Source: an uncultured Bacteroidales bacterium
GTDB taxonomy: Bacteria > Bacteroidota > Bacteroidia > Bacteroidales > UBA1402
Direction of reading: 5' to 3'
Length of the DNA: 64,000 nt
NCBI GenBank assembly: GCA_964472175.1
Contig: CAYYJF010000001.1
Coordinates: 40,950-104,949 of the forward strand
Part shown: piece after piece, positions 4,061 through 60,436 of the stretch
Numbering within the stretch: position 1 is the stretch's first letter
Layout of the letters: each line of letters opens with the position of its first letter
Position numbers and translations under genes: made by a program
The notes under the pieces: model-generated
What the model saw: the letters and a program-made list of their open reading frames with translations, nothing else
What the model was told of the DNA's origin: nothing
Database searches by the model: none

Positions 4061-4306
4061 ATGACCGTTATGTCTGACGTAGCTGCAAAAGTAAAAGCCA
4101 TCATCGTTGACAAGTTGGGAGTAGAAGAAACCGAAGTTACCCCTGAAGCAAGTTTCACAAACGACTTGGGTGCAGATTCCCTCGACACCGTTGAATTGAT
4201 CATGGAATTCGAAAAAGAATTTGGAATTTCTATTCCAGATGACAAAGCAGAAAAGATCACTACTGTCGGTGAAGCTATCGCACACATTGAAGCAACTGCC
4301 AAATAA
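4061..4306 (+). CDS. acpP: Acyl carrier protein
   Basis: [17 protein letters not shown] phosphopantetheine motif; true start may be ATG at 4070. Confidence 0.97.
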
Positions 4307-4324
4307 ATAAGGCAATTCAATCGT

Positions 4325-5590
4325 ATGGAATTAAAAAGAGTTGTCGTAACAGGTCTTGGTGCCATTACACCCTTAGGTAACAATGTCAATGATACATGGG
4401 CATCATTGCTTAAGGGCGTAAGTGGAGCCGGACCTATTACGCGCTTTGACACGTCAAAGTACAAAACAAAATTTGCTTGCGAAGTTAAGAACCTTGATTT
4501 ATCTGTCTATTTTGACCGGAAGGAAGCCCGTAAATACGATCCTTTTGCTCAATTTGCAGTGATTGCCGCAAAAGAAGCCATTTCAGATGCAGCAATTGAT
4601 ACTGAAAAAGAAGATTTAGATCGTATTGGCGTCATTTGGGGTGCCGGTATTGGTGGAATCGATACTTTTGAACAAGAAGTTCTTGAATTTGCAAAGGGAG
4701 ATGGTTCTCCAAGATTCAATCCATTCTTCATTCCAAAAATGATTGCAGATTTATCTGCTGGTCATATTTCAATGATGTATGGATTCAGAGGACCAAACTT
4801 CTGTACAGTATCAGCCTGTGCTTCATCCTCTAACGCCATTGCGGATGCATTCAATTATATCCGTCTTGGTAAAGCAAATATGTTCGTTTGTGGAGGTTCG
4901 GAAGCTGCAATTACGCAGGCCGGTGTTGGTGGATTTAACTCCATGCACGCCCTTTCAACCAGAAATGAAGACTATGCAACCGCATCGCGACCTTTTTCTA
5001 AGAGTCGGGATGGATTTGTGATGGCAGAAGGTGGCGCATGCTTGATCCTTGAAGAACTTGAACACGCATTGGCACGTGGCGCAAAAATTTACGCAGAAGT
5101 TGCTGGTGTTGGTTTATCCGCAGATGCACACCACATGACAGCACCACATCCTGAAGGATTGGGCGCGATGTTGGTCATGAAAAATGCACTTGAAGATGCC
5201 GAATTAAAACCCGAAGAAATTGATTATATCAACGTACACGGCACATCGACACCTCTGGGTGATATTGCAGAAACCAAAGCCATTAAAGCTGTATTTGGCG
5301 AGCACGCTTACAAATTAAATATCAGCTCAACCAAGTCTCAGACCGGTCACCTCTTAGGTGCAGCTGGAGCCATTGAGGCCATGGTTGCTGTATTGTCTGT
5401 TCAACAGAACATTATTCCTCCAACCATTAATTTCCAGGCAGGAGATGAAGACCCTGAAATTGATTACAACCTCAATTTCACCTTCAATACTGCTTGCAAA
5501 CGCGAAGTAAGGGCAGCCTTGTCCAATACTTTTGGTTTTGGCGGTCACAATGCAAGTGTCATCGTTAAGAAATGGAAGCCAAACGCTTGA
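4325..5590 (+). CDS. fabF: 3-oxoacyl-ACP synthase II
   Basis: RVVVTGLG, SACASS (catalytic Cys), YINVHGTST, SSTKSQTGHLLGAAG, NTFGFGGHN. Confidence 0.97.
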   Translation: MELKRVVVTGLGAITPLGNNVNDTWASLLKGVSGAGPITRFDTSKYKTKFACEVKNLDLSVYFDRKEARKYDPFAQFAVIAAKEAISDAAIDTEKEDLDRIGVIWGAGIGGIDTFEQEVLEFAKGDGSPRFNPFFIPKMIADLSAGHISMMYGFRGPNFCTVSACASSSNAIADAFNYIRLGKANMFVCGGSEAAITQAGVGGFNSMHALSTRNEDYATASRPFSKSRDGFVMAEGGACLILEELEHALARGAKIYAEVAGVGLSADAHHMTAPHPEGLGAMLVMKNALEDAELKPEEIDYINVHGTSTPLGDIAETKAIKAVFGEHAYKLNISSTKSQTGHLLGAAGAIEAMVAVLSVQQNIIPPTINFQAGDEDPEIDYNLNFTFNTACKREVRAALSNTFGFGGHNASVIVKKWKPNA

Positions 5591-6429: not shown

Positions 6430-7476
6430 ATGGATTTCATTTCAGGTTTATACAATCTGTATTTAAAAGATCGATTCAAAGAAATTCAGAACTATGCAAC
6501 TGAAGCATCTGACATTCAGAGCGAACAGCTGTCAAATTTGTTGTTGGAAGCCTCCGAAACCGAAATGGGAAAACGTTTTAATTTCAAAACCATTTACAGT
6601 TATCAGGAATTCCGTGAACGCTTGCCCATTCAAAGAATTTCTGATTTGTCGAATGACATCAATCGCATGGCAAGTGGAGCCTCCAATATTGTATGGCCAG
6701 GAGCACCGATTGCCATCATGGATTCAATAAACAACATAAAAATTCCATTGTTCCATCAAGCCATCATTGAAATTTTTCAAAAAGGCATAGGAGATAGTTA
6801 TGCCATCCACATGCAATCACATCCGGACTGCAAATTACTCGATGGTTTCTCTGTAAATGTAGGGAACGGTGAAAGAAGCCCTTTCCTGAATGAATTATAC
6901 TCCATATTGAGGGAAAACGAACCCTTTTTGTCCAACCTATTAAACTTACCCAAACGTGTTGGGAAAGACAAAGACGGGAACCCCTCCATTGAATTGGTTC
7001 TTCAAGAGTGTTTGGGGCAAAAAGTGACCAGTTTTAGAGGAACACCTCAAAGATTGAATGCAGTCCTGAGCAAAGGGCTGCACAAAACAGGAAATTCCAA
7101 TATTCAGACACTTTGGCCAGACGCAGAAATTTTGTTCGAACGAAATATTTTGAACCATGTTGAAATCGCCGAACAAAAACAATTGATCCCTGATAACATT
7201 CAATATCAATTCTCCTATTTGTCACCGGAAGGTTTTTTTGGCATTCAGGACGGTATTGAAGACGAATCCCTCTTGCTCATGTTGGATTTAAGCACATTTT
7301 ATGAATTTATCCCCATCGATGGTGATTCTTCGGACATCATTCCATTGGAAGACATCACCATCGATCAAGTATATACGCTTGTCATTACGAATTGTAACGG
7401 CCTTTGGAGATGCTGCTCAGAAGGGCCAAAAATCAAATTCGTTGCAACCAATCCGTTTAGATTTATTTTAATATAA
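6430..7476 (+). CDS. GH3 (acyl-adenylate synthetase) family protein, C-terminally truncated and motif-degenerate
   Basis: N-terminus typical of Bacteroidetes GH3 ([10 protein letters not shown]...FRERLPI...IVWPG; [10 protein letters not shown]; [13 protein letters not shown]; TNCNGLWR); ends at NPFRFILI. Confidence 0.7.
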
Positions 7477-11824: not shown

Positions 11825-12538
11825 ATGAAGATTGCGTTAATTGGTTACGGGAAAATGGGGCATGAGATTGAAAGAATTGCTCTGGAAAGAGGTCATGAGA
11901 TTGTTTGCACCATTGATATTGGGAACCCCGAAGCTTTTGATTCCGACGCTTTCAAATCGGCGCAGGTAGCCATCGAATTTACCAGACCCGAATCCGCATT
12001 GAACAATTATAGAAAGTGCTTTGAAAAAAATATTTCTGTGGTGTCCGGAACAACTGGCTGGTTAAATGCAATTGAAGAAATTCAAACAGCCTGCAAAAAC
12101 GGACAGACCTTCTTTTATGCTTCAAATTTCAGTCTGGGTGTCAACCTTTTCTTTGCATTAAACAAAAAACTGGCAGAGATGATGCAAAACATTCCGGCTT
12201 ACGATGTACGCATGAAAGAAATTCACCATACCCAAAAACTGGATGCGCCCTCAGGAACAGCCATCACCCTGGCTGAAGACATTCTAAAAATATGTGACCA
12301 GAAAAAGCAGTGGGTCAATCAAATCAGCCCCGAAAAATCGGACTTAATGATTGTTTCTGAACGCACCGGAGCTGTTCCTGGATTTCATGAAATCACCTGG
12401 GAATCTGATGTGGATTCCATCACCATTGCACACGACGCAAAAAACAGGGTCGGTTTTGCCCTTGGAGCAGTATTGGCCGCAGAATTTACCGAAAACCACA
12501 CCGGTTTTCTATCAATGAATGATTTACTCGGGTTTTAA
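11825..12538 (+). CDS. dapB: 4-hydroxy-tetrahydrodipicolinate reductase
   Basis: GYGKMG, IEFT, VSGTTG, ASNFSLGVN, EIHHTQKLDAPSGTA. Confidence 0.95.
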   Translation: MKIALIGYGKMGHEIERIALERGHEIVCTIDIGNPEAFDSDAFKSAQVAIEFTRPESALNNYRKCFEKNISVVSGTTGWLNAIEEIQTACKNGQTFFYASNFSLGVNLFFALNKKLAEMMQNIPAYDVRMKEIHHTQKLDAPSGTAITLAEDILKICDQKKQWVNQISPEKSDLMIVSERTGAVPGFHEITWESDVDSITIAHDAKNRVGFALGAVLAAEFTENHTGFLSMNDLLGF

Positions 12539-12555
12539 TCTAACATCGAAATTCA

Positions 12556-14013
12556 ATGAGCCAGGATACAAATAAAAAGACCAAAAATTCAAAGAAATTG
12601 AAATGGATTCGCTTCTCCATTTGGACGATGATGACCATCCTTTTCTCCATTTGGACACAAAGTTTTTGGTGGTTGCTTGCAATCCCTATGTTTCTTGACC
12701 TATACATTACCCGCTACTTCCCATGGGGATTCTGGAAAAAATCTAAAAATAAATACTTTAAAAGCATCATGGATTGGGTTGATGCCATCGTATTTGCACT
12801 GATCGCTGTATACATCATCAACATTTACTTTTTTCAAAACTATCAAATACCTTCTTCTTCACTTGAAAAGTCACTCTTGGTAGGCGATTTCCTGTTTGTG
12901 AGTAAAGCAAGTTATGGGCCCAGAGTACCCAATACGCCATTGGCTTTTCCATTGGCGCATCACACCATTCCTGGTTTGAATATTAAATCCTATTCGGATA
13001 AACCACATTGGGGGTATAAAAGGGTTCCAGGTCTGGGAAAAATCAAAAGAAATGACATTGTCGTCTTCAATTATCCTGCTGGAGATTCAGTGACTATTAC
13101 CAAACCCATTCCGGATTATTATACCTTGAGTTACACCTTGGGGAGACAGTATCAAACTTCGACAGAGGTTGCCAGTAATTACATTAAAAACAACCCTGAT
13201 CTTTTCGGTAAATTGGTATACAGACCCGTCGATCGTCGGGAACATTATGTAAAAAGATGTATCGGACTGCCCGGAGAAACACTGGTCATTAAAAACAACC
13301 ACGTATTTATTGATGGCGTCAAAATTGAAGAAGAGCCTGGTGTACAATTCAACTATTTTGTTCAAACAAAAGGAGGATATATCACCGAAACCATGTTCCA
13401 ATCCTGGGGTATTACCAAGGAAGACTATTTAAACAGTAAGATTGACCTCAATGAGCTCGGATCTTTGGGCCTTCCATTTCATAAAAATACAAATGGAGCC
13501 TACAATCCGGTTTATATTCTACCGGCCACTAAAAGCACATTGAATAAAATCAAAAACAATCCTTTTATTGATACGGCATTTATTGAACCAGATATTATTA
13601 ATGGCATGAATTTCGGCGGGCCATCTTATCCATTAACCGATGAAAATTCCTGGACAAGAGACAATTACGGTCCCATCTGGATTCCTGCAAAAGGAGCGAC
13701 AATCAAATTAACTTTGGAAAATCTCCCCATCTATTTGCGTGTAATTGAAAACTACGAAGGACAATCAGTGGATGTCATAAATCAAAAAATTTACATCAAT
13801 GGGAAAGTTGTACAATCCTACACTTTTCAGATGGATTATTATTGGATGATGGGTGATAACAGGCACAATTCTGCAGACTCAAGGTCGTGGGGTTTCGTAC
13901 CTGAAGATCACGTTGTTGGGAAGCCCATTCTTGTCTGGTTGTCTTTGGATAAAGATAAAAGTTTGTTTGAAGGAAAAATTCGATGGAATCGATTTTTTAA
14001 ACGCGCTTACTAA
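12556..14013 (+). CDS. lepB: Signal peptidase I
   Basis: IPSSSL (Ser), YVKRCIGLPG (Lys), GDNRHNSADSRSWGFVP. Confidence 0.95.
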   Translation: MSQDTNKKTKNSKKLKWIRFSIWTMMTILFSIWTQSFWWLLAIPMFLDLYITRYFPWGFWKKSKNKYFKSIMDWVDAIVFALIAVYIINIYFFQNYQIPSSSLEKSLLVGDFLFVSKASYGPRVPNTPLAFPLAHHTIPGLNIKSYSDKPHWGYKRVPGLGKIKRNDIVVFNYPAGDSVTITKPIPDYYTLSYTLGRQYQTSTEVASNYIKNNPDLFGKLVYRPVDRREHYVKRCIGLPGETLVIKNNHVFIDGVKIEEEPGVQFNYFVQTKGGYITETMFQSWGITKEDYLNSKIDLNELGSLGLPFHKNTNGAYNPVYILPATKSTLNKIKNNPFIDTAFIEPDIINGMNFGGPSYPLTDENSWTRDNYGPIWIPAKGATIKLTLENLPIYLRVIENYEGQSVDVINQKIYINGKVVQSYTFQMDYYWMMGDNRHNSADSRSWGFVPEDHVVGKPILVWLSLDKDKSLFEGKIRWNRFFKRAY

Positions 14014-14036
14014 AAGTATTAACCAAAATACAAAGC

Positions 14037-14927
14037 ATGAAAATCAGACCAATTATTCTGATTTTATTTATTGCTGCATTTATTGCAATGACAATTCGGG
14101 TGTTTTTCATAGAATCTTACAAAATAGCAACAGATTCAATGTCAGACACGCACAAATCTGGAGTATGTCTGCTTGTTGAGAAGTGGACACTTGGAGCACT
14201 TATCCCTTTTAGTCATAGGCAAAGGGTTTCCGGATTTGGCTCGATTGAAAGAAACGATTTGATTGTATATAAACAACCACTTATCAGGCCCTCTTCCCCC
14301 AGAAATCGCGACCTGCTCAGTCGATGTATCGGATTGCCGGGAGAAACGCTCTATTTGAGCAACGATACCGTTCTTGTGAACAATCAATTATTAAACAGAC
14401 CAAAGACCATCGTTGAATGCTATCGTTTTTCTTCGGAAGCAGAAAACACGTTAAAAAAGCAAATCATTCGACTGAAATTAAGCGCAGCCATTTACGAAAA
14501 AGGGGATGTTGGATATGTCTATTTGAACAAATGGGATTGGTATAAATTATATACCAGCAAACCATTGGAAAAATCCACTCTACAAAAGGAATCATGGGTC
14601 ATGCAACCCATACACTTGAAAATACCCAAAAAAGGAATGAAAATTCCTCTGAATGACAGCACATTACAATTGTATGGTAACCTCATACAAAATTTTGAAG
14701 AGGTAAAAATTACAAGAGATTCCGTCGGTAGAATCTATAAAAACGGATATTTGGCACATCTCTATGTCTTCAAACAAAATTACTACTTTTTGATGAACGA
14801 CCATCAAGGGCATTTAAATGACAGCAGACAATTTGGAGTCATTCCCGAATCCTTGTTTGTTGGCAGGGCTTGTTTTGTTTTATTCTCACCTGAGAACAAA
14901 CGATTTATGCAAAAAATATCGAATTAA
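14037..14927 (+). CDS. Signal peptidase I paralogue, probably non-catalytic
   Basis: S26 fold motifs present but LLSRCIGLPG has Ser (codon 14319-14321) where lepB has the catalytic Lys. Confidence 0.8.
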   Translation: MKIRPIILILFIAAFIAMTIRVFFIESYKIATDSMSDTHKSGVCLLVEKWTLGALIPFSHRQRVSGFGSIERNDLIVYKQPLIRPSSPRNRDLLSRCIGLPGETLYLSNDTVLVNNQLLNRPKTIVECYRFSSEAENTLKKQIIRLKLSAAIYEKGDVGYVYLNKWDWYKLYTSKPLEKSTLQKESWVMQPIHLKIPKKGMKIPLNDSTLQLYGNLIQNFEEVKITRDSVGRIYKNGYLAHLYVFKQNYYFLMNDHQGHLNDSRQFGVIPESLFVGRACFVLFSPENKRFMQKISN

Positions 14928-26416: not shown

Positions 26417-28294
26417 ATGAATTTCATATACGATGTCATCGTGGTCGGAGCTGGTCACGCAGGATGTGAGGCTGCTGCCGCCGCAGCCAATTTGGGTTCA
26501 AAGACCTTGCTCATCACCATGGACATGAATAAGATCGCCCAAATGAGCTGTAATCCGGCCATGGGGGGTATCGCAAAGGGACAAATTGTTCGTGAAATTG
26601 ACGCATTAGGTGGTCAATCAGCCATCGTAACAGATCAAACAGCCATTCAATTCAGGATGCTGAACCGATCTAAAGGCCCTGCCATGTGGAGCCCGAGATC
26701 ACAAAGCGACCGTACTAAATTCTCCGAATATTGGAGAGCAATCCTTGAAAACACCACCAACCTGAATATCTGGCAAGATACCGTTACAGCATTACACTTC
26801 AATCCGGATGGTTCAGTCAACGGAGTCATTACAACCATTCAGGCAAAATTTTACGCAAAGTGCGTTGTCCTGACCAACGGAACCTTTCTAAATGGGCTGA
26901 TTCATGTGGGGAAAGCCCAATATCACGGAGGAAGAATGGCAGATTCTGCCTCTTATGGGATCACAGAACAGCTCTCTTCTATGGGAATCGCTTACGATAG
27001 AATGAAAACCGGAACGCCTGTAAGAATTGATGCAAGAAGCGTCAATTTTGACCTCATGGAAGAACAAAAAGGAGATGTAGATGATCACAAATTTTCATAT
27101 TTGGATTTCAAGCCCAGGCCGCTAAAGCAACAAAGCTGTTGGATTTGTTACACGAACCCGGAGGCACACAGTATTTTGCACAATTCCATCGATGAATCGC
27201 CCTTATACAACGGACAAATCAAAAGCATTGGTCCACGATATTGCCCAAGCATTGAAACTAAAATATTTACATTCTCGGATAAAGACCAGCATCAGTTGTT
27301 TCTTGAGCCAGAAGGCGAAACAACCAATGAAATGTACTTAAACGGATTCTCTTCATCTTTACCACTATCGGTTCAAATAAAGGCGTTGGAAACGATTCCA
27401 TGCTTTAAAAATGTGCAGATTTTCAGACCTGGATATGCCATTGAATACGATTTTTTTGATCCTACACAGCTTAAACACAACTTAGAAACAAAGAAAATCA
27501 AAAACTTGTTTTTTGCAGGTCAAATCAACGGAACCACTGGATACGAAGAAGCTGCAGGTCAAGGCTTGATGGCAGGCATCAACGCACACATCAACTGTCA
27601 TGGTGGCGATCCTTTTGTTTTACAAAGAGATGAAGCCTATATTGGCGTATTGATCGATGATTTGGTCACAAAAGGCGTCGATGAACCGTATAGAATGTTT
27701 ACCTCCAGATCAGAACATCGCATACTTTTAAGACAAGACAATGCGGATATGAGATTGACAGAAAAAGCATACCAGCTAGGATTGGTGAAGAAAAACAGAT
27801 TTAAATTATTCACAAAGAAAAAGAAAGAAGTCGATTCACTGATTGAATTTTGCTCAAATTACTCGATCAAAGCGTCCATCATCAACCCTGTTTTGGAAGC
27901 ATTAAACACCGCCCCTCTGAAACAAGGGGTGAAGTTAAAAGACCTGATTCAACGTCCACAGCTCAATTTTGACAATCTAAAACAGCATATTGAAGCCTTA
28001 AATCAAAAAATTGAAAAAATTGACTGCTTAAAAGAAGAAATCATTGAAGCTGCAGAAATTCAAATCAAGTATGAAGGTTATATTGAAAGAGAGCGTGGCA
28101 TCGCAGAAAAGATAAACAGATTGGATCAAATTAAAATTTTGGGCAAATTTGAGTACGACAACATCCAATCGCTCTCTATTGAAGCAAGGCAGAAACTTAA
28201 AAGGATACAACCAGAGACCATCGGGCAGGCATCCCGAATACCAGGTGTATCTCCAAACGACATCAACGTCTTGCTCTTATTGATGGGTAGATAA
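26417..28294 (+). CDS. mnmG: tRNA uridine-5-carboxymethylaminomethyl modification enzyme
   Basis: GAGHAGCEA, MSCNPAMGG, GPRYCPSIE, AGQINGTTGYEEAA, EPYRMFTSR. Confidence 0.97.
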   Translation: MNFIYDVIVVGAGHAGCEAAAAAANLGSKTLLITMDMNKIAQMSCNPAMGGIAKGQIVREIDALGGQSAIVTDQTAIQFRMLNRSKGPAMWSPRSQSDRTKFSEYWRAILENTTNLNIWQDTVTALHFNPDGSVNGVITTIQAKFYAKCVVLTNGTFLNGLIHVGKAQYHGGRMADSASYGITEQLSSMGIAYDRMKTGTPVRIDARSVNFDLMEEQKGDVDDHKFSYLDFKPRPLKQQSCWICYTNPEAHSILHNSIDESPLYNGQIKSIGPRYCPSIETKIFTFSDKDQHQLFLEPEGETTNEMYLNGFSSSLPLSVQIKALETIPCFKNVQIFRPGYAIEYDFFDPTQLKHNLETKKIKNLFFAGQINGTTGYEEAAGQGLMAGINAHINCHGGDPFVLQRDEAYIGVLIDDLVTKGVDEPYRMFTSRSEHRILLRQDNADMRLTEKAYQLGLVKKNRFKLFTKKKKEVDSLIEFCSNYSIKASIINPVLEALNTAPLKQGVKLKDLIQRPQLNFDNLKQHIEALNQKIEKIDCLKEEIIEAAEIQIKYEGYIERERGIAEKINRLDQIKILGKFEYDNIQSLSIEARQKLKRIQPETIGQASRIPGVSPNDINVLLLLMGR

Positions 28295-36960: not shown

Positions 36961-39582
36961 CTATTTCCCTTTCAAAATCTTTTTAATTTCACTCAATTTA
37001 TTCAGCGCTTCGATGGGCGTCAAATGATCGATGTCTACACGGATGATTTCGTCTCTGATTTGAGACAAAATGGGGTCATCCAACTGGAAAAAACTCAGTT
37101 GCATTCCATCCCTTTCCTGCGCAATTTCGGTGGTGGGTTTGTGGAGTGACCCTTTTCTGTTTTCATTTTCCATCTGATCCAGAATGTGGTTGGCGCGCTT
37201 CAAAATACTTTGAGGCATCCCTGCCATTTTGGCCACGTGTATGCCAAAGCTATGCTCTGTACCACCACGTACCAACTTTCTTAAAAACAAGACTTTATCT
37301 TCACTTTCCCGAACAGAAATGTGATAATTACGTATGCGTGAAAACGATTTTTCCATTTCATTCAATTCATGATAATGGGTTGCAAAAAGCGTTTTGGCTT
37401 TAAATTTCGGATGTTCGTGGATGTATTCAACGATAGACCATGCAATGGAAATGCCGTCATAGGTGGAGGTACCCCTGCCCAATTCATCAAACAAAACCAA
37501 ACTTCTTTGGGATAAATTGTTGATGATGTTTGACGCTTCATTCATTTCCATCATAAAAGTGGATTCACCTGAAGAGATGTTGTCGGAAGCTCCTACCCGG
37601 GTAAATACCTTATCTACAAGTCCTATTCTCGCAGCTTCTACCGGAACAAAGCAACCCATTTGGGCCATCAGTACAATAATGGCTGTTTGCCTTAAAAAGG
37701 CAGATTTCCCTGCCATATTCGGGCCGGTAATCATTAGAATTTGTTCCGTTGTTCCGTCCATATACACACTGTTGGGAACATATACACCATTTTCTGGCAA
37801 TTGCGTTTCAATGACAGGATGCCGGCCATTCACAATATCCAACACATCACTGTCTTCGATTTGAGGACGAACATATTTGTTGTGCATCGAAACCAAAGAA
37901 AAAGCAAGCAAACAATCCAATTGTGCAATGATGGATGCATTTTTTAGAATGAAAGCAATGTATTGAAGGGTTTCAACCATTAATTCATTGTAGATTCTGG
38001 ATTCTATGGCTTGAATCTTTTCTTCAGCACCTAAAATCTTTTCTTCATAATCCTTGAGTTCCTGCGTAATATAACGCTCCGCATTGACAAGGGTTTGTTT
38101 TCTGATCCAATCTTCGGGAACCTTGTCTTTTTGGGAGTTTCTTACCTCAATATAATATCCAAAAACATTGTTAAAACTGATTCTCAGACTGCTGATACCT
38201 GTTCGCAACACTTCTCTTTCCTGAATTTTCAAGAGAAAGTCCTTTCCTGAGTTGGATAATTTGCGCAATTCATCCAACTCCAAATCAACACCTTCTTTGA
38301 CAACTGTTCCTTTATTCAGCGCAATGGGTGGATTTTCAACAATGGTTGCTCCAATTTTATCCATGATGATTTTACATGGATTCAATTGATGAACAAGCTG
38401 TAAAAAGGAGTCGGGAATGTCTTCTTTGATGCTTTGAGCTTCCTGGATGATATTATCAATGGATTGAAATGAGCGGCACAATTCGACCATTTCTCTTGGA
38501 TTCACTCTCCCAACCGATATTTTGGAAGCAATTCTTTCAATGTCACTGATGGAAGCTATTTTTTCACACAAGAACCGGTTGAAATCTGTGGTTTGAATCA
38601 AAAAATCAACCACATCTTGTCTGTTTTGTATGTCCTGAATGTCCTTTAATGGGAATAAAATCCAACGCCGCATCAATCTGGCACCCATCGAAGACTTGGT
38701 TTTATCCAAAATATTCAATAAGCTTTTTCCGCCCTCATTGATTGGATTGCAAAGTTCCAGACTTCGAATGGTAAAACGATCCAATCGAACAAACTTTTCT
38801 TCTTCAATTCTTGAAATCGACTGAATATGACTTAGTTGCTTGTGTTCAGTCATATCCATATAATACAAAATAGCACCGGATGCAAAAATAGCAAGGGGCA
38901 TATCCTGAATTCCAAAACCTTTTAAATTGACCGTGTTGAAATGTTTTGTCAGCCTCATTTGCGCTGTTTCCGCTGAAAAAACCCAATCTTCCATTTCAAA
39001 TTGGGCAGCATGAAAGGAAAATTGTTCTTTTAAAACCGATTTTTTGCTTCTTTCATAGATAATTTCTTTCGGAGCAAACAGATTCAATAGTTTATCGATG
39101 GTGTTTAAATCGCCTTCTGAAGTCAAAAATTCGCCCGTTGACAAATCTAAAAAGGCAACACCTGCCCTGTTTTTTTCAATATGCAAACCAGCCAAAAAAT
39201 TATTCTCTTTGGTATCCAAAATCTGATCATTGGTAGAAACACCGGGAGTAACCAATTCGGTGATGCCACGCTTCACCAGTTTTTTGGTCATTTTCGGATC
39301 TTCCAATTGATCACAAATGGCAACTCTTCTACCCGCCCGCACCAGTTTGTATAAATAGTTATCCATGGCATGATGTGGAAAACCAGCCATTTCTATGGGA
39401 CCTGCAGCACCGTTTGATTTTCTGGTTAAGGTGATGTTTAATATATCGACTACATCTAGAGCATCCTTTCCATAGGCTTCATAAAAGTCTCCTACTCTGA
39501 AAAGCAGCAACGCATCGGGATGTTTGCTTTTCATTTCAAAATATTGTTTGATCAGCGGTGTATTTTCAGCAGTTTTATTCAA
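36961..39582 (-). CDS. mutS: DNA mismatch repair protein MutS
   Basis: [35 protein letters not shown]-terminal QLSFF; start reassigned to TTG 39582 because the ORF-track TTG (39609) lies inside a -7 promoter box. Confidence 0.95.
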
Positions 39583-39606
39583 GGAGTCTATTTTTAATTG
39601 ATACGG

Positions 39607-39614
39607 CAAATATA
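39607..39614 (-). promoter_or_regulatory. -7 promoter element (TATATTTG) of mutS
   Basis: Exact TAnnTTTG on - strand 24 nt upstream of the TTG start. Confidence 0.65.
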
Positions 39615-39991
39615 AAAAAAGGATGTTGAAAACCTGTTGGTAAATGTTGATAAGTCCGAATGATTGTGTTGAGAAAAATAAACAACTTCAAAGGATGTGA
39701 AAAGTATCCCAGGATACGAACAAGCATCCATAGAGTTATCAACAGAACCGTTTGTAAAAAACCATCAACAACATCTATTTCAACAGTCAACTAAAAAAAT
39801 GAATATCGTTATATAAATGAACGAAATAGAAAGTTTGATGATTGTTGAAAACTTGTTTACAAACTAAAAAAAATATTCATAACTCAACTTCCTTGATTTT
39901 TTTCAATTAAAGTATCAACACTATCAACTGTCTATTATTATCCTTAAATTCTTTTATTTAATAATCTAATGAATAATAATAGGATGTTTGT
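39610..39991. other. Candidate chromosomal replication origin (oriC)
   Basis: About 380-bp very AT-rich intergenic region with about 10 TT(A/T)TCAACA-like 9-mers, an AT-rich CTA/TTA repeat segment, a strand-bias switch across it, and parS nearby. Confidence 0.8.
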
Positions 39992-40522
39992 TTATTTGTT
40001 GAGTTCATTATAAAAACTCCAGATAACAATTCCGGCTGCGACCGATACATTCAATGAATGTTTGGTACCAAATTGTGGAATTTCAATGCAAGAGTCGCAT
40101 AAATCAACCACAGATTGCTGTACACCATGCACTTCATTTCCCAAAATAATGGCATATTTTTTTTGAGTATCCAAGTCTAATTTTTCAAGTGAAATGCTGT
40201 TTTGAGCTTGTTCAATGGCGCATACCACATAACCCTCCTGTTTTAAATTTTCTACCACCTTCAAACAATCTGTATGGTATTCCCAATCAACACTAAATTC
40301 AGATCCCAATGCGGTTTTATGGATTTCAGGATTGGGTGGTGTAGAAGAAATACCGCATAACACAATTTTTTCAATCAGGAATGCGTCTGCAGTTCTAAAT
40401 ATGGAACCAATATTGTGCATGCTTCTGATATTGTCTAAAACAATGGTCAAAGCAGTTTTTTCACTATTTTTAAAGGCTTCTGTGGAAAGTCTTTGCATTT
40501 CCAATATACTTCGTTTTTTCAT
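39992..40522 (-). CDS. SpoU/TrmH family RNA methyltransferase
   Basis: VLDNIRSMHNIGSIFRTADAF, LGNEVHG, IPQFGTKHSLNVSVAAG. Confidence 0.92.
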   Translation of the reverse strand: MKKRSILEMQRLSTEAFKNSEKTALTIVLDNIRSMHNIGSIFRTADAFLIEKIVLCGISSTPPNPEIHKTALGSEFSVDWEYHTDCLKVVENLKQEGYVVCAIEQAQNSISLEKLDLDTQKKYAIILGNEVHGVQQSVVDLCDSCIEIPQFGTKHSLNVSVAAGIVIWSFYNELNK

Positions 40523-59577: not shown

Positions 59578-60333
59578 TTATGATATTGAAAAATACGGTA
59601 GCAACAAATCTTCAAACTGGTAATATCCCTTTGATTTGTCGTGGAGATTGTCTGCTGCAAATATAACTCCGTTACCAAAGGCCTCTCTTGATATGGATTC
59701 ATGTACCAATCTGATGGTTTGATACGGAAAGCCGAAGATTACCTCGTGTTTTCCGACGATGCCACCAACCCGAATGGAATTGATTTTATCGTTTGTTATC
59801 CTCAGTTTATCTGCAATTTTCAATGCTGTTCCGGAGATGCCTTTTTTTTGTTTGAAATGTTCTTCGATAATTTCAATATCCACATAAGGGGCTATTTTCT
59901 TTAGTATTCGGCTAGCCGTTAAAAGAAAATTTACACCAAGGGTGATGTTTGGAGACCACATAACGGTGGTTTCATGGGAAATGCTCTTCAAGTATTTAAC
60001 CGTTTTAACATCGTAATGAGAGATGGCTGTTATAATTTTTATATGTTTTCTGGCCGCAGCATCTCCATAGGTATATATCCCAAATTCTGAGGAGAAATCA
60101 ATGATATAGTCAACAGGGTTTTCTTCAATAAACGAATCGAAATGAATGTTTTTTAGCGCATAGATCTTCCCCGGATCATCGCATTCTATGCCCATAAAAT
60201 CCTTTACAGAAATATGCTCTTGTTTCTCTGACTTCCTTAGCACCCACTCTAATGAGTAGTTTTCTTGCTGGAGAACCACGTTGGCCACAGCTTTTCCGGT
60301 TTTACCGAAACCGATCAATCCAATTTTTTTCAT
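59578..60333 (-). CDS. Second, divergent dihydrodipicolinate reductase-like protein
   Basis: GFGKTG, IIDFS, WSPNITLGVN, EEHFKQKKGISGTA, RVGGIVGKH, SREAFGNG. Confidence 0.75.
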   Translation of the reverse strand: MKKIGLIGFGKTGKAVANVVLQQENYSLEWVLRKSEKQEHISVKDFMGIECDDPGKIYALKNIHFDSFIEENPVDYIIDFSSEFGIYTYGDAAARKHIKIITAISHYDVKTVKYLKSISHETTVMWSPNITLGVNFLLTASRILKKIAPYVDIEIIEEHFKQKKGISGTALKIADKLRITNDKINSIRVGGIVGKHEVIFGFPYQTIRLVHESISREAFGNGVIFAADNLHDKSKGYYQFEDLLLPYFSIS

Positions 60334-60436
60334 CCTGCATTTTTTATGCATAAATATAACAAAAATTGGTGGTAAATAAAATTATGTAATCACAGAAGGA
60401 GGTTAAAAAGTGTAGAAAAAGGTTAATGTGCGGCGT

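Follow-up and report, generated by a model that had tools for sequence, protein, structure and literature searches.

A predicted chromosomal replication origin with DnaA boxes carrying A at position 6 in the mutS-SpoU gap of an uncultured Bacteroidales bacterium

In an uncultured wastewater and bioreactor Bacteroidales, chromosome replication very probably starts in the intergenic gap between mutS and a SpoU-family methyltransferase gene, an origin (oriC) predicted here from sequence and of ordinary architecture. A first-pass annotation of the window (the whole 64-kb stretch of DNA that was analysed) had read this place as an origin. That reading is now supported by a strand-corrected switch in composition skew, by an unstable duplex joined to tandem DnaA boxes, by the conservation of the box cores and by box clusters in other Bacteroidales. 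The features on which it rests are collected in Table 1.

Table 1. Features of the candidate origin in the window, and box clusters at other Bacteroidales loci (A6 and C6, boxes with A or C at position 6; DUE, DNA unwinding element)
Feature	Position	Strand	Remarks
mutS	36961-39582	-	NCBIfam MutS equivalog, 991 bits; transcription directed away from origin
Putative mutS promoter -7 element TATATTTG	39607-39614	-	24 nt upstream of TTG start 39582
Box TTTTCAACA	39624	-	DUE-distal array
Box TTACCAACA	39635	-	DUE-distal array
Box TTATCAACA	39645	-	DUE-distal array
Box TTCTCAACA	39667	-	DUE-distal array
DUE-distal four-box array	39624-39675	-	39624/39635/39645 phased 11 + 10 bp, plus 39667
Box TTATCAACA	39736	+	points towards DUE
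Box CCATCAACA	39762	+	points towards DUE
Box ATTTCAACA	39777	+	points towards DUE
Three-box group	39736-39785	+	oriented to DUE
Box TTTTCAACA	39843	-	joined to near-palindrome
Box TTTTCAACA + near-palindrome TTGTTTACAA (+ strand)	39843-39864	-	21-bp block TTTGTWAACAAGTTTTCAACA conserved
Box GTATCAACA	39912	+	tandem pair, points at DUE
Box CTATCAACT	39921	+	tandem pair, abuts 39912 box
Two abutting boxes	39912-39929	+	oriented to DUE
AT-rich DUE, candidate	39930-39991	.	ends at SpoU stop codon
DnaA-trio-like triplets CTA TTA TTA	39932-39940	+	complement 3'-GAT AAT AAT-5'
SpoU-family RNA 2'-O-methyltransferase gene	39992-40522	-	NCBIfam + Pfam SpoU_methylase; 3' end abuts DUE
Cluster in L038, Prevotella sp.	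679-bp gap directly upstream of nadA		A6:C6 = 10:2; skew left mixed, two right genes positive
Cluster in L077, Bacteroidaceae	518-bp gap two genes from porZ		A6:C6 = 10:0; GC3 skew: one left gene negative, right 11/14 ORFs positive
Cluster in L019, Prevotellaceae, uncultured MAG	1-454, directly upstream of mutS		A6:C6 = 1:6, four exact TTATCCACA; GC3 skew: 9/9 right genes positive, no left genes
Cluster in L032, Paludibacteraceae	4270-4664, gap 22% GC		A6:C6 = 6:1; no skew switch

The gap runs from 39583 to 39991 (409 bp) and has an identical length in the two closest relatives. Its mutS-side border is most likely a TTG start at 39582, because the ATG of the relative L084 reads ACT in the window. 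The gene order across the locus is polA, ychF, mutS, gap, SpoU, nadA, rdgB, porZ (type IX secretion), folK and queA, and the other ORFs of the window are housekeeping genes, for example ruvB, mnmG/gidA, uvrC, dtd and mazG. The neighbouring genes place the organism in the Bacteroidota. Metagenomes from wastewater, bioreactors and sediment, about 20 in all, contain near-identical sequence. Among the matches listed from GTDB species representatives the best MutS match has 64% identity, and the lineage is therefore poorly represented. The element that we take to be a -7 element of the Bacteroidota TAnnTTTG type lies on the mutS side of the gap, and the block TTTTYTATATTTGC, the probable mutS -7 element in the alignment, is conserved in the window, L081 and L084. 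A sigma-70 promoter and terminator scan, whose consensus is ill-suited to Bacteroidota, gave counts equal to those of shuffles. Elsewhere in the window there are two DapB-like genes (11825-12538 and 59578-60351) and two signal-peptidase S26 genes in tandem (12556-14927).

Gene strand confounds raw cumulative GC skew, whose minimum is accordingly broad (24-41 kb). We therefore regressed per-gene skew within the 64-kb window on gene strand together with the side of a breakpoint. A breakpoint placed at 39.8 kb gives the side term t values of 6.6 for GC3, -6.7 for AT3 and 5.3 when all positions are taken. Skew goes from negative to positive on passing it from left to right, as at an origin rather than a terminus, so that the window holds the kind of switch expected at an oriC. 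The best-fitting breakpoints lie at about 30-41 kb (resolution near 10 kb), an interval in which no sizeable intergenic gap other than the one between SpoU and mutS is found. The mutS gene itself is slightly right-side-like in skew, the best breakpoints (30-38 kb) falling a few kb to the left of the gap. Two genes, mazG and dtd, deviate in skew; the identical genes deviate in the relatives L084/L085, which suggests a gene-specific bias. GC3 skew also changes sign across the SpoU-mutS gap of L084/L085. Genes to the left of the gap are mostly on the + strand and give no co-orientation signal.

Within this gap, 382 bp hold a dense cluster of 9-mers related to the DnaA box. A sequence check returned all ten boxes at the coordinates and on the strands first reported, with the first three spaced 11 and 10 bp apart and with A at position 6 in 10/10, so that the C6 of the canonical TTATnCACA is found in none of them. 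The boxes of L081, L082, L084 and L077 likewise carry A6. Two groups of opposite orientation can be distinguished: the boxes at 39736, 39762, 39777, 39912 and 39921 are directed to the DUE, and those at 39624-39675 face the opposite way. Seven boxes match TTATCAACA with at most one mismatch and the remaining three with two. The whole window has 48 matches at the stricter threshold; 7 of the 48 fall within these 382 bp, and the other 400-bp bins of the window hold at most 2. We shuffled the 382-bp region itself (26% GC) 5000 times while preserving dinucleotides, which gave a mean of 0.43 matches and a maximum of 5, and 0/5000 shuffles reached 7. There are 8 copies of the core TCAACA where 0.58 would be expected, and other AT-rich 382-bp stretches of the window contain at most one match each. 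Motif density is thus above the AT-matched background (7 versus 0.43), a comparison on which the first-pass annotation had staked its proposal, and the intergenic cluster looked for in an oriC is present with 7 (at most one mismatch) or 10 (at most two) boxes.

An AT-rich unwinding element beside the boxes, another expected component of an oriC, is present as well. The least stable duplex sits directly 3' of the tandem boxes 39912 and 39921: by nearest-neighbour dG, 39922-39982 is the least stable 60-mer in the whole 64 kb (-60.1 kcal/mol versus a mean of -78.6, sd 4.3; 4.3 sd off the mean). The elements follow each other in the order GTATCAACA, CTATCAACT, GT, CTA TTA TTA, and the complement of the triplets, 3'-GAT AAT AAT-5', equals the DnaA-trio consensus. 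Under the search rule for a basal unwinding system (BUS) a box may have up to two mismatches and must lie no more than 16 bp from three or more NAN triplets, the commonest first triplet being 3'-GAT-5' and a second tandem box being frequent (PMC8287927). The window has all of these, namely box 39912 (one mismatch to TTWTCMACA), the tandem box 39921, an 11-bp spacer and CTA TTA TTA. The NAN-triplet rule is permissive and easily satisfied by chance in AT-rich DNA; we therefore regard the match as consistent anatomy and not as proof.

The incC part of the Bacillus subtilis oriC (DnaA-boxes 6/7, DnaA-trios, AT-rich 27-mer) has a similar arrangement: two abutting boxes oriented as TTATCCACA, then 2-3 bp of G/C as spacer, triplets of which the first is CTA (3'-GAT-5') and an AT-rich unwinding site after them. 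We take the B. subtilis layout to be TTATCCACA AATCCACAG GCC CTACTATTAC..., with the triplets CTA CTA TTA. The candidate origin departs from B. subtilis in having A6 and not C6 in its boxes, three clean triplets versus six or more, and a position that is not between dnaA and dnaN.

It resembles E. coli oriC in being unlinked to dnaA and in having gidA/mnmG nearby, 11.5 kb away in the window; gidA beside oriC is the classic gamma-proteobacterial arrangement. The two also share a DUE at one edge, DUE-proximal boxes that point at it, and a distal group of opposite orientation with 10-11 bp phasing, that is, left and right halves (PMC5742627). Unlike E. coli oriC, the candidate origin has no 13-mer repeats and no GATC clustering, and its flanking genes are different. 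We also observed that replication, repair and nucleotide-sanitising genes cluster round the origin between 23619 and 44430 (ruvB, mnmG/gidA at 26417-28294, uvrC, dtd, mazG, polA, mutS and rdgB).

The absence of dnaA and dnaN from the window was correctly noted from the start: tblastn gave no dnaA match, and a DnaA or DnaN domain is found in 0/55 annotated ORFs. No dnaA homologue was found by tblastn in the 80 mutS loci listed either. Linkage to dnaA/dnaN is frequent among origins and not defining. According to DoriC, Bacteroidetes origins commonly lie far from dnaA, and the predicted oriC of Prevotella intermedia OMA14 (1,498,452-1,498,927) is at a skew switch (PMC4755523); the separation from dnaA is therefore not new. 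The candidate origin is like the DoriC Bacteroidetes oriCs in its E. coli-like boxes (one mismatch allowed), its GC-skew switch and its distance from dnaA. The P. intermedia account comes without a box consensus (PMC4755523), and the window locus belongs to an uncultured lineage. Ori-Finder and DoriC would score the window boxes as one-mismatch E. coli boxes.

We compared the gap with its counterparts in relatives obtained by a SpoU protein search and contig look-ups (SpoU identity 99% for L082, 94% for L081 and 70% for L084/L085). All of them have nadA, SpoU, a gap of 409-430 bp, mutS, ychF and polA. Box cores are 95% identical in L081 versus 81% for non-box gap positions (p = 0.003), and 75% versus 53% in L084 (p = 0.001). 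Conservation within the gap is highest at the DUE, with 97% identity in L081 versus 68-80% in mid-gap, and TATTATTATTC of the DUE is retained in L084. In both L081 and L084, therefore, box cores and DUE exceed the remaining gap sequence in conservation, as would be expected for the elements of an oriC.

Two substitutions in L081 turn TTCTCAACA and ATTTCAACA into TTATCAACA, i.e. towards consensus, and the cores of boxes 39736, 39762 and 39777 are retained there. The DUE-distal four-box array is kept in L081 and is present in degenerate form in L084. L084 retains the abutting pair as AACTCAACA GTATCAACA, followed by only two clean triplets; in L081 the outer tandem box 39912, the nearer-consensus member of the pair, is degraded to AAATGAACA. 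The sequence ATAATAG (the triplets in reverse complement) is invariant in the window, L081 and L084. In a further relative, L083 (68% SpoU identity), the contig stops 69 bp past the SpoU stop codon (6532-6600), where the DUE would begin, and this contig end may be an assembly break at the origin.

The box at 39843 is conserved together with its neighbour. In the block TTTGTWAACAAGTTTTCAACA, 20/21 positions are identical in the window, L081 and L084, the exception being W, and the flanks diverge; L084 has two additional copies of TGTAACAAGTT. The near-palindrome TTGTWAACAA could be a site for a second origin-binding protein. Another block between boxes, 39872-39890 (reverse complement TTGAGTTnTGAATATT), is kept in L081 and L084 and contains a weak box-like AACTCAAC.

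A comparison with the SpoU- and nadA-adjacent regions of other Bacteroidales had been proposed as a check, and it came out in favour of the origin: the gap is kept in close relatives, and A6 clusters lie beside nadA in L038 and near porZ in L077. Most of the 80 Bacteroidales mutS loci listed have no box cluster within 10 kb, and the origin is therefore not generally adjacent to mutS. Phased arrays comparable to the distal array of the window occur in both L038, where a phased triple reads TGTTCATAA-ACC-TGTTGAAAA-CCA-TGTTGAAAA, and L077, where the cluster lies inside the shared neighbourhood porZ-rdgB...mutS...ychF-polA. The L019 cluster occupies the same position as that of the window but has C6 boxes. 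On the loci compared here, A6-rich clusters are widespread in the order and recur in one neighbourhood, and both A6 and C6 occur.

Other clusters show how such counts should be read. The gap in L032 has seven TTTTCAACA-like boxes on one strand, with GC3 skew positive on both sides; without a skew switch it was not counted as an origin, and the cluster is either no origin or one that has recently moved. Box clusters alone are therefore no proof of an origin. The cluster in L021 (2990-3500, Phocaeicola-labelled), with 11 TTWTCMACA-like words in 500 bp and 72 in 13.7 kb, was rejected as a false positive since it lies in what reads as coding DNA, and motif density alone can therefore mislead.

The L032 case bears directly on the best-surviving alternative, in which the cluster is a DnaA-box cluster other than the origin: a titration or reactivation site of the datA/DARS type, or a DnaA-controlled mutS promoter near the true origin. 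Clusters of boxes outside oriC are known from E. coli as datA and DARS (PMC5742627), the distal phased boxes of the window overlap the probable mutS promoter, and the best skew breakpoints fall to the left of the gap. Against this, the switch interval (28-41 kb) offers no other usable intergenic gap or box cluster. The cluster is also joined, through the tandem boxes and the trio-like triplets, to the least stable duplex, a module that datA and DARS do without, and no part of the gap is more conserved than the DUE. A site of the datA/DARS type would be a cluster away from the skew switch and without an unwinding module, and what we find is the reverse on both counts. We consider this alternative unlikely.

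The base-specific contacts of E. coli DnaA are made by R399, P423, D433, H434, T435 and H439 (PMC2533591). TTA is read by R399 and TnCACA by the helix 434-451, and E. coli DnaA, unlike what the window boxes offer, requires TTATnCACA with C6 included (PMC5742627). Residues were numbered on an E. coli domain IV query identical to chain 1J1V_A. A first DnaA search used a Bacteroidota-like domain IV query that already contained DHAT and SLASIG and was thus biased. It returned DnaA fragments of Bacteroidales, Flavobacteriales and Bacteroidia with KDHATVLH in 120/120 (119 KDHATVLHA, 1 KDHATVLHS) and SLA at 421-423 in 115/120, the other 5 having Ser or Thr at 423. Because of this bias the search was repeated with a query of domain III only, which gave 101 new hits, 86 of them reaching domain IV. 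Among these domain III-selected Bacteroidota hits, DHATVLHA, that is T435A, is present in 86/86. Of the 84 hits that could be read around position 423, 78 have Ala there and the rest Ser or Thr, with Pro in 0/84. R399, D433, H434 and H439 are kept in Bacteroidota DnaA and R432 is replaced by Lys, so that the full six-residue E. coli-type contact set, as in B. subtilis, is not found there.

The suggestion that the DnaA of this lineage reads a shifted box through a changed recognition helix is therefore supported, with two reservations. The helix is changed, with T435A throughout the domain III-selected hits and Pro423 never seen, but the change is phylum-wide and not special to this lineage. 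A shifted box agrees with A6 in all ten boxes of the gap, but the canonical TTATCCACA occurs at one Prevotellaceae locus, L019, and DnaA specificity may therefore be broadened rather than shifted. On present sequences the A6 box goes with Ala435 and Ala, Ser or Thr at 423 in Bacteroidota DnaA.

Lineage-specific boxes have precedents in the cyanobacterial TTTTCCACA, the Thermotoga maritima AAACCTACCACC and the Helicobacter pylori TCATTCACA type, where, as here, a phylum-level shift of the box is found alongside substitutions in DnaA domain IV (PMC10225481, PMC6669920, PMC5043019). Unlike those boxes, which keep C at position 6, the present ones are changed at this very position, and the candidate substitutions on the protein side are T435A and P423A/S/T. 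Our literature search, carried out in one library, found no paper tying TTATCAACA to a Bacteroidetes DnaA.

The same comparison speaks to a second and quite improbable alternative, that the 9-mers are sites for another TGTTGA-recognising protein, for example a transcription factor of mutS or SpoU, their likeness to DnaA boxes being coincidental. Binding by DnaA is deduced here, position 6 departs from the TTATnCACA required by E. coli DnaA (PMC5742627), and the conserved palindrome beside box 39843 means that at least one further factor may bind. Yet 8/9 positions agree with the DnaA box, including the 5' TTW, and a pair abutting at 9 bp, phasing by 10-11 bp and opposed groups make up the geometry of a DnaA oligomer (PMC5742627). 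Related clusters moreover mix A6 and C6 (10 and 2 in L038, 1 and 6 in L019), and in this phylum the helix with which DnaA recognises this part of the box is altered.

Short repeats by an AT-rich stretch would also fit the iterons of an integrated plasmid or conjugative element, read by a Rep protein. An iteron-type origin would be expected beside a rep gene in a mobile context. No rep, relaxase, integrase, partition or mobile-element gene was found in the 64 kb, no tRNA, Rfam match or boundary repeat lies in the window, and the flanks are housekeeping genes whose synteny is kept across families, which leaves this explanation with hardly any probability. A chance build-up of A/T-rich words in a low-GC spacer, conceivable given the 26% GC of the gap and the dense but meaningless TTATCAACA-like words in the coding DNA of L021, is effectively refuted by the composition-matched shuffles, none of which reaches the observed count, and by the preferential conservation of the boxes.

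Taking the gap as the origin, we propose the following course of initiation. Some ten 9-bp TTWTCAACA-type boxes, divided into two oppositely oriented groups, would be bound by DnaA; the SpoU-proximal group ends in two abutting boxes aimed at CTA TTA TTA and a 60-bp AT-rich stretch. A DnaA oligomer would nucleate on the boxes, extend onto the triplets and open the AT-rich stretch, where the helicase would be loaded; such opening would correspond to the basal unwinding system known from B. subtilis. The distal phased group, which overlaps the probable mutS promoter, is probably a second sub-complex like the right half of E. coli oriC, and it may couple mutS transcription to initiation: its phased boxes overlap the upstream side of the -7 element, and mutS transcription may therefore follow DnaA occupancy.

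Beyond this locus, we tentatively put forward, at slightly less than even confidence, that the Bacteroidota have a DnaA-box class of their own, TTWTC(A>C)ACA, whose reader would be a DnaA with Ala435 and a helix 4 without Pro423, a thymine methyl replacing the guanine of the position-6 G:C pair. The same proposal places Bacteroidales origins in a conserved nadA-rdgB-porZ-mutS neighbourhood with an extra palindrome TTGTWAACAA for a further origin-binding factor. The pairing of box and DnaA is a modest new variant, and the architecture of the origin is the ordinary module of boxes, trios and DUE, so the general understanding of bacterial origins is unchanged. The combination of A6 with T435A and P423A/S/T offers a hypothesis on structure and specificity for a box position at which E. 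coli DnaA is strict. For origin finders applied to Bacteroidota, our results suggest that TTWTCMACA is a better motif than the E. coli box. For this lineage, the predicted location of oriC would anchor the replichore structure and coverage-based estimates of growth rate.
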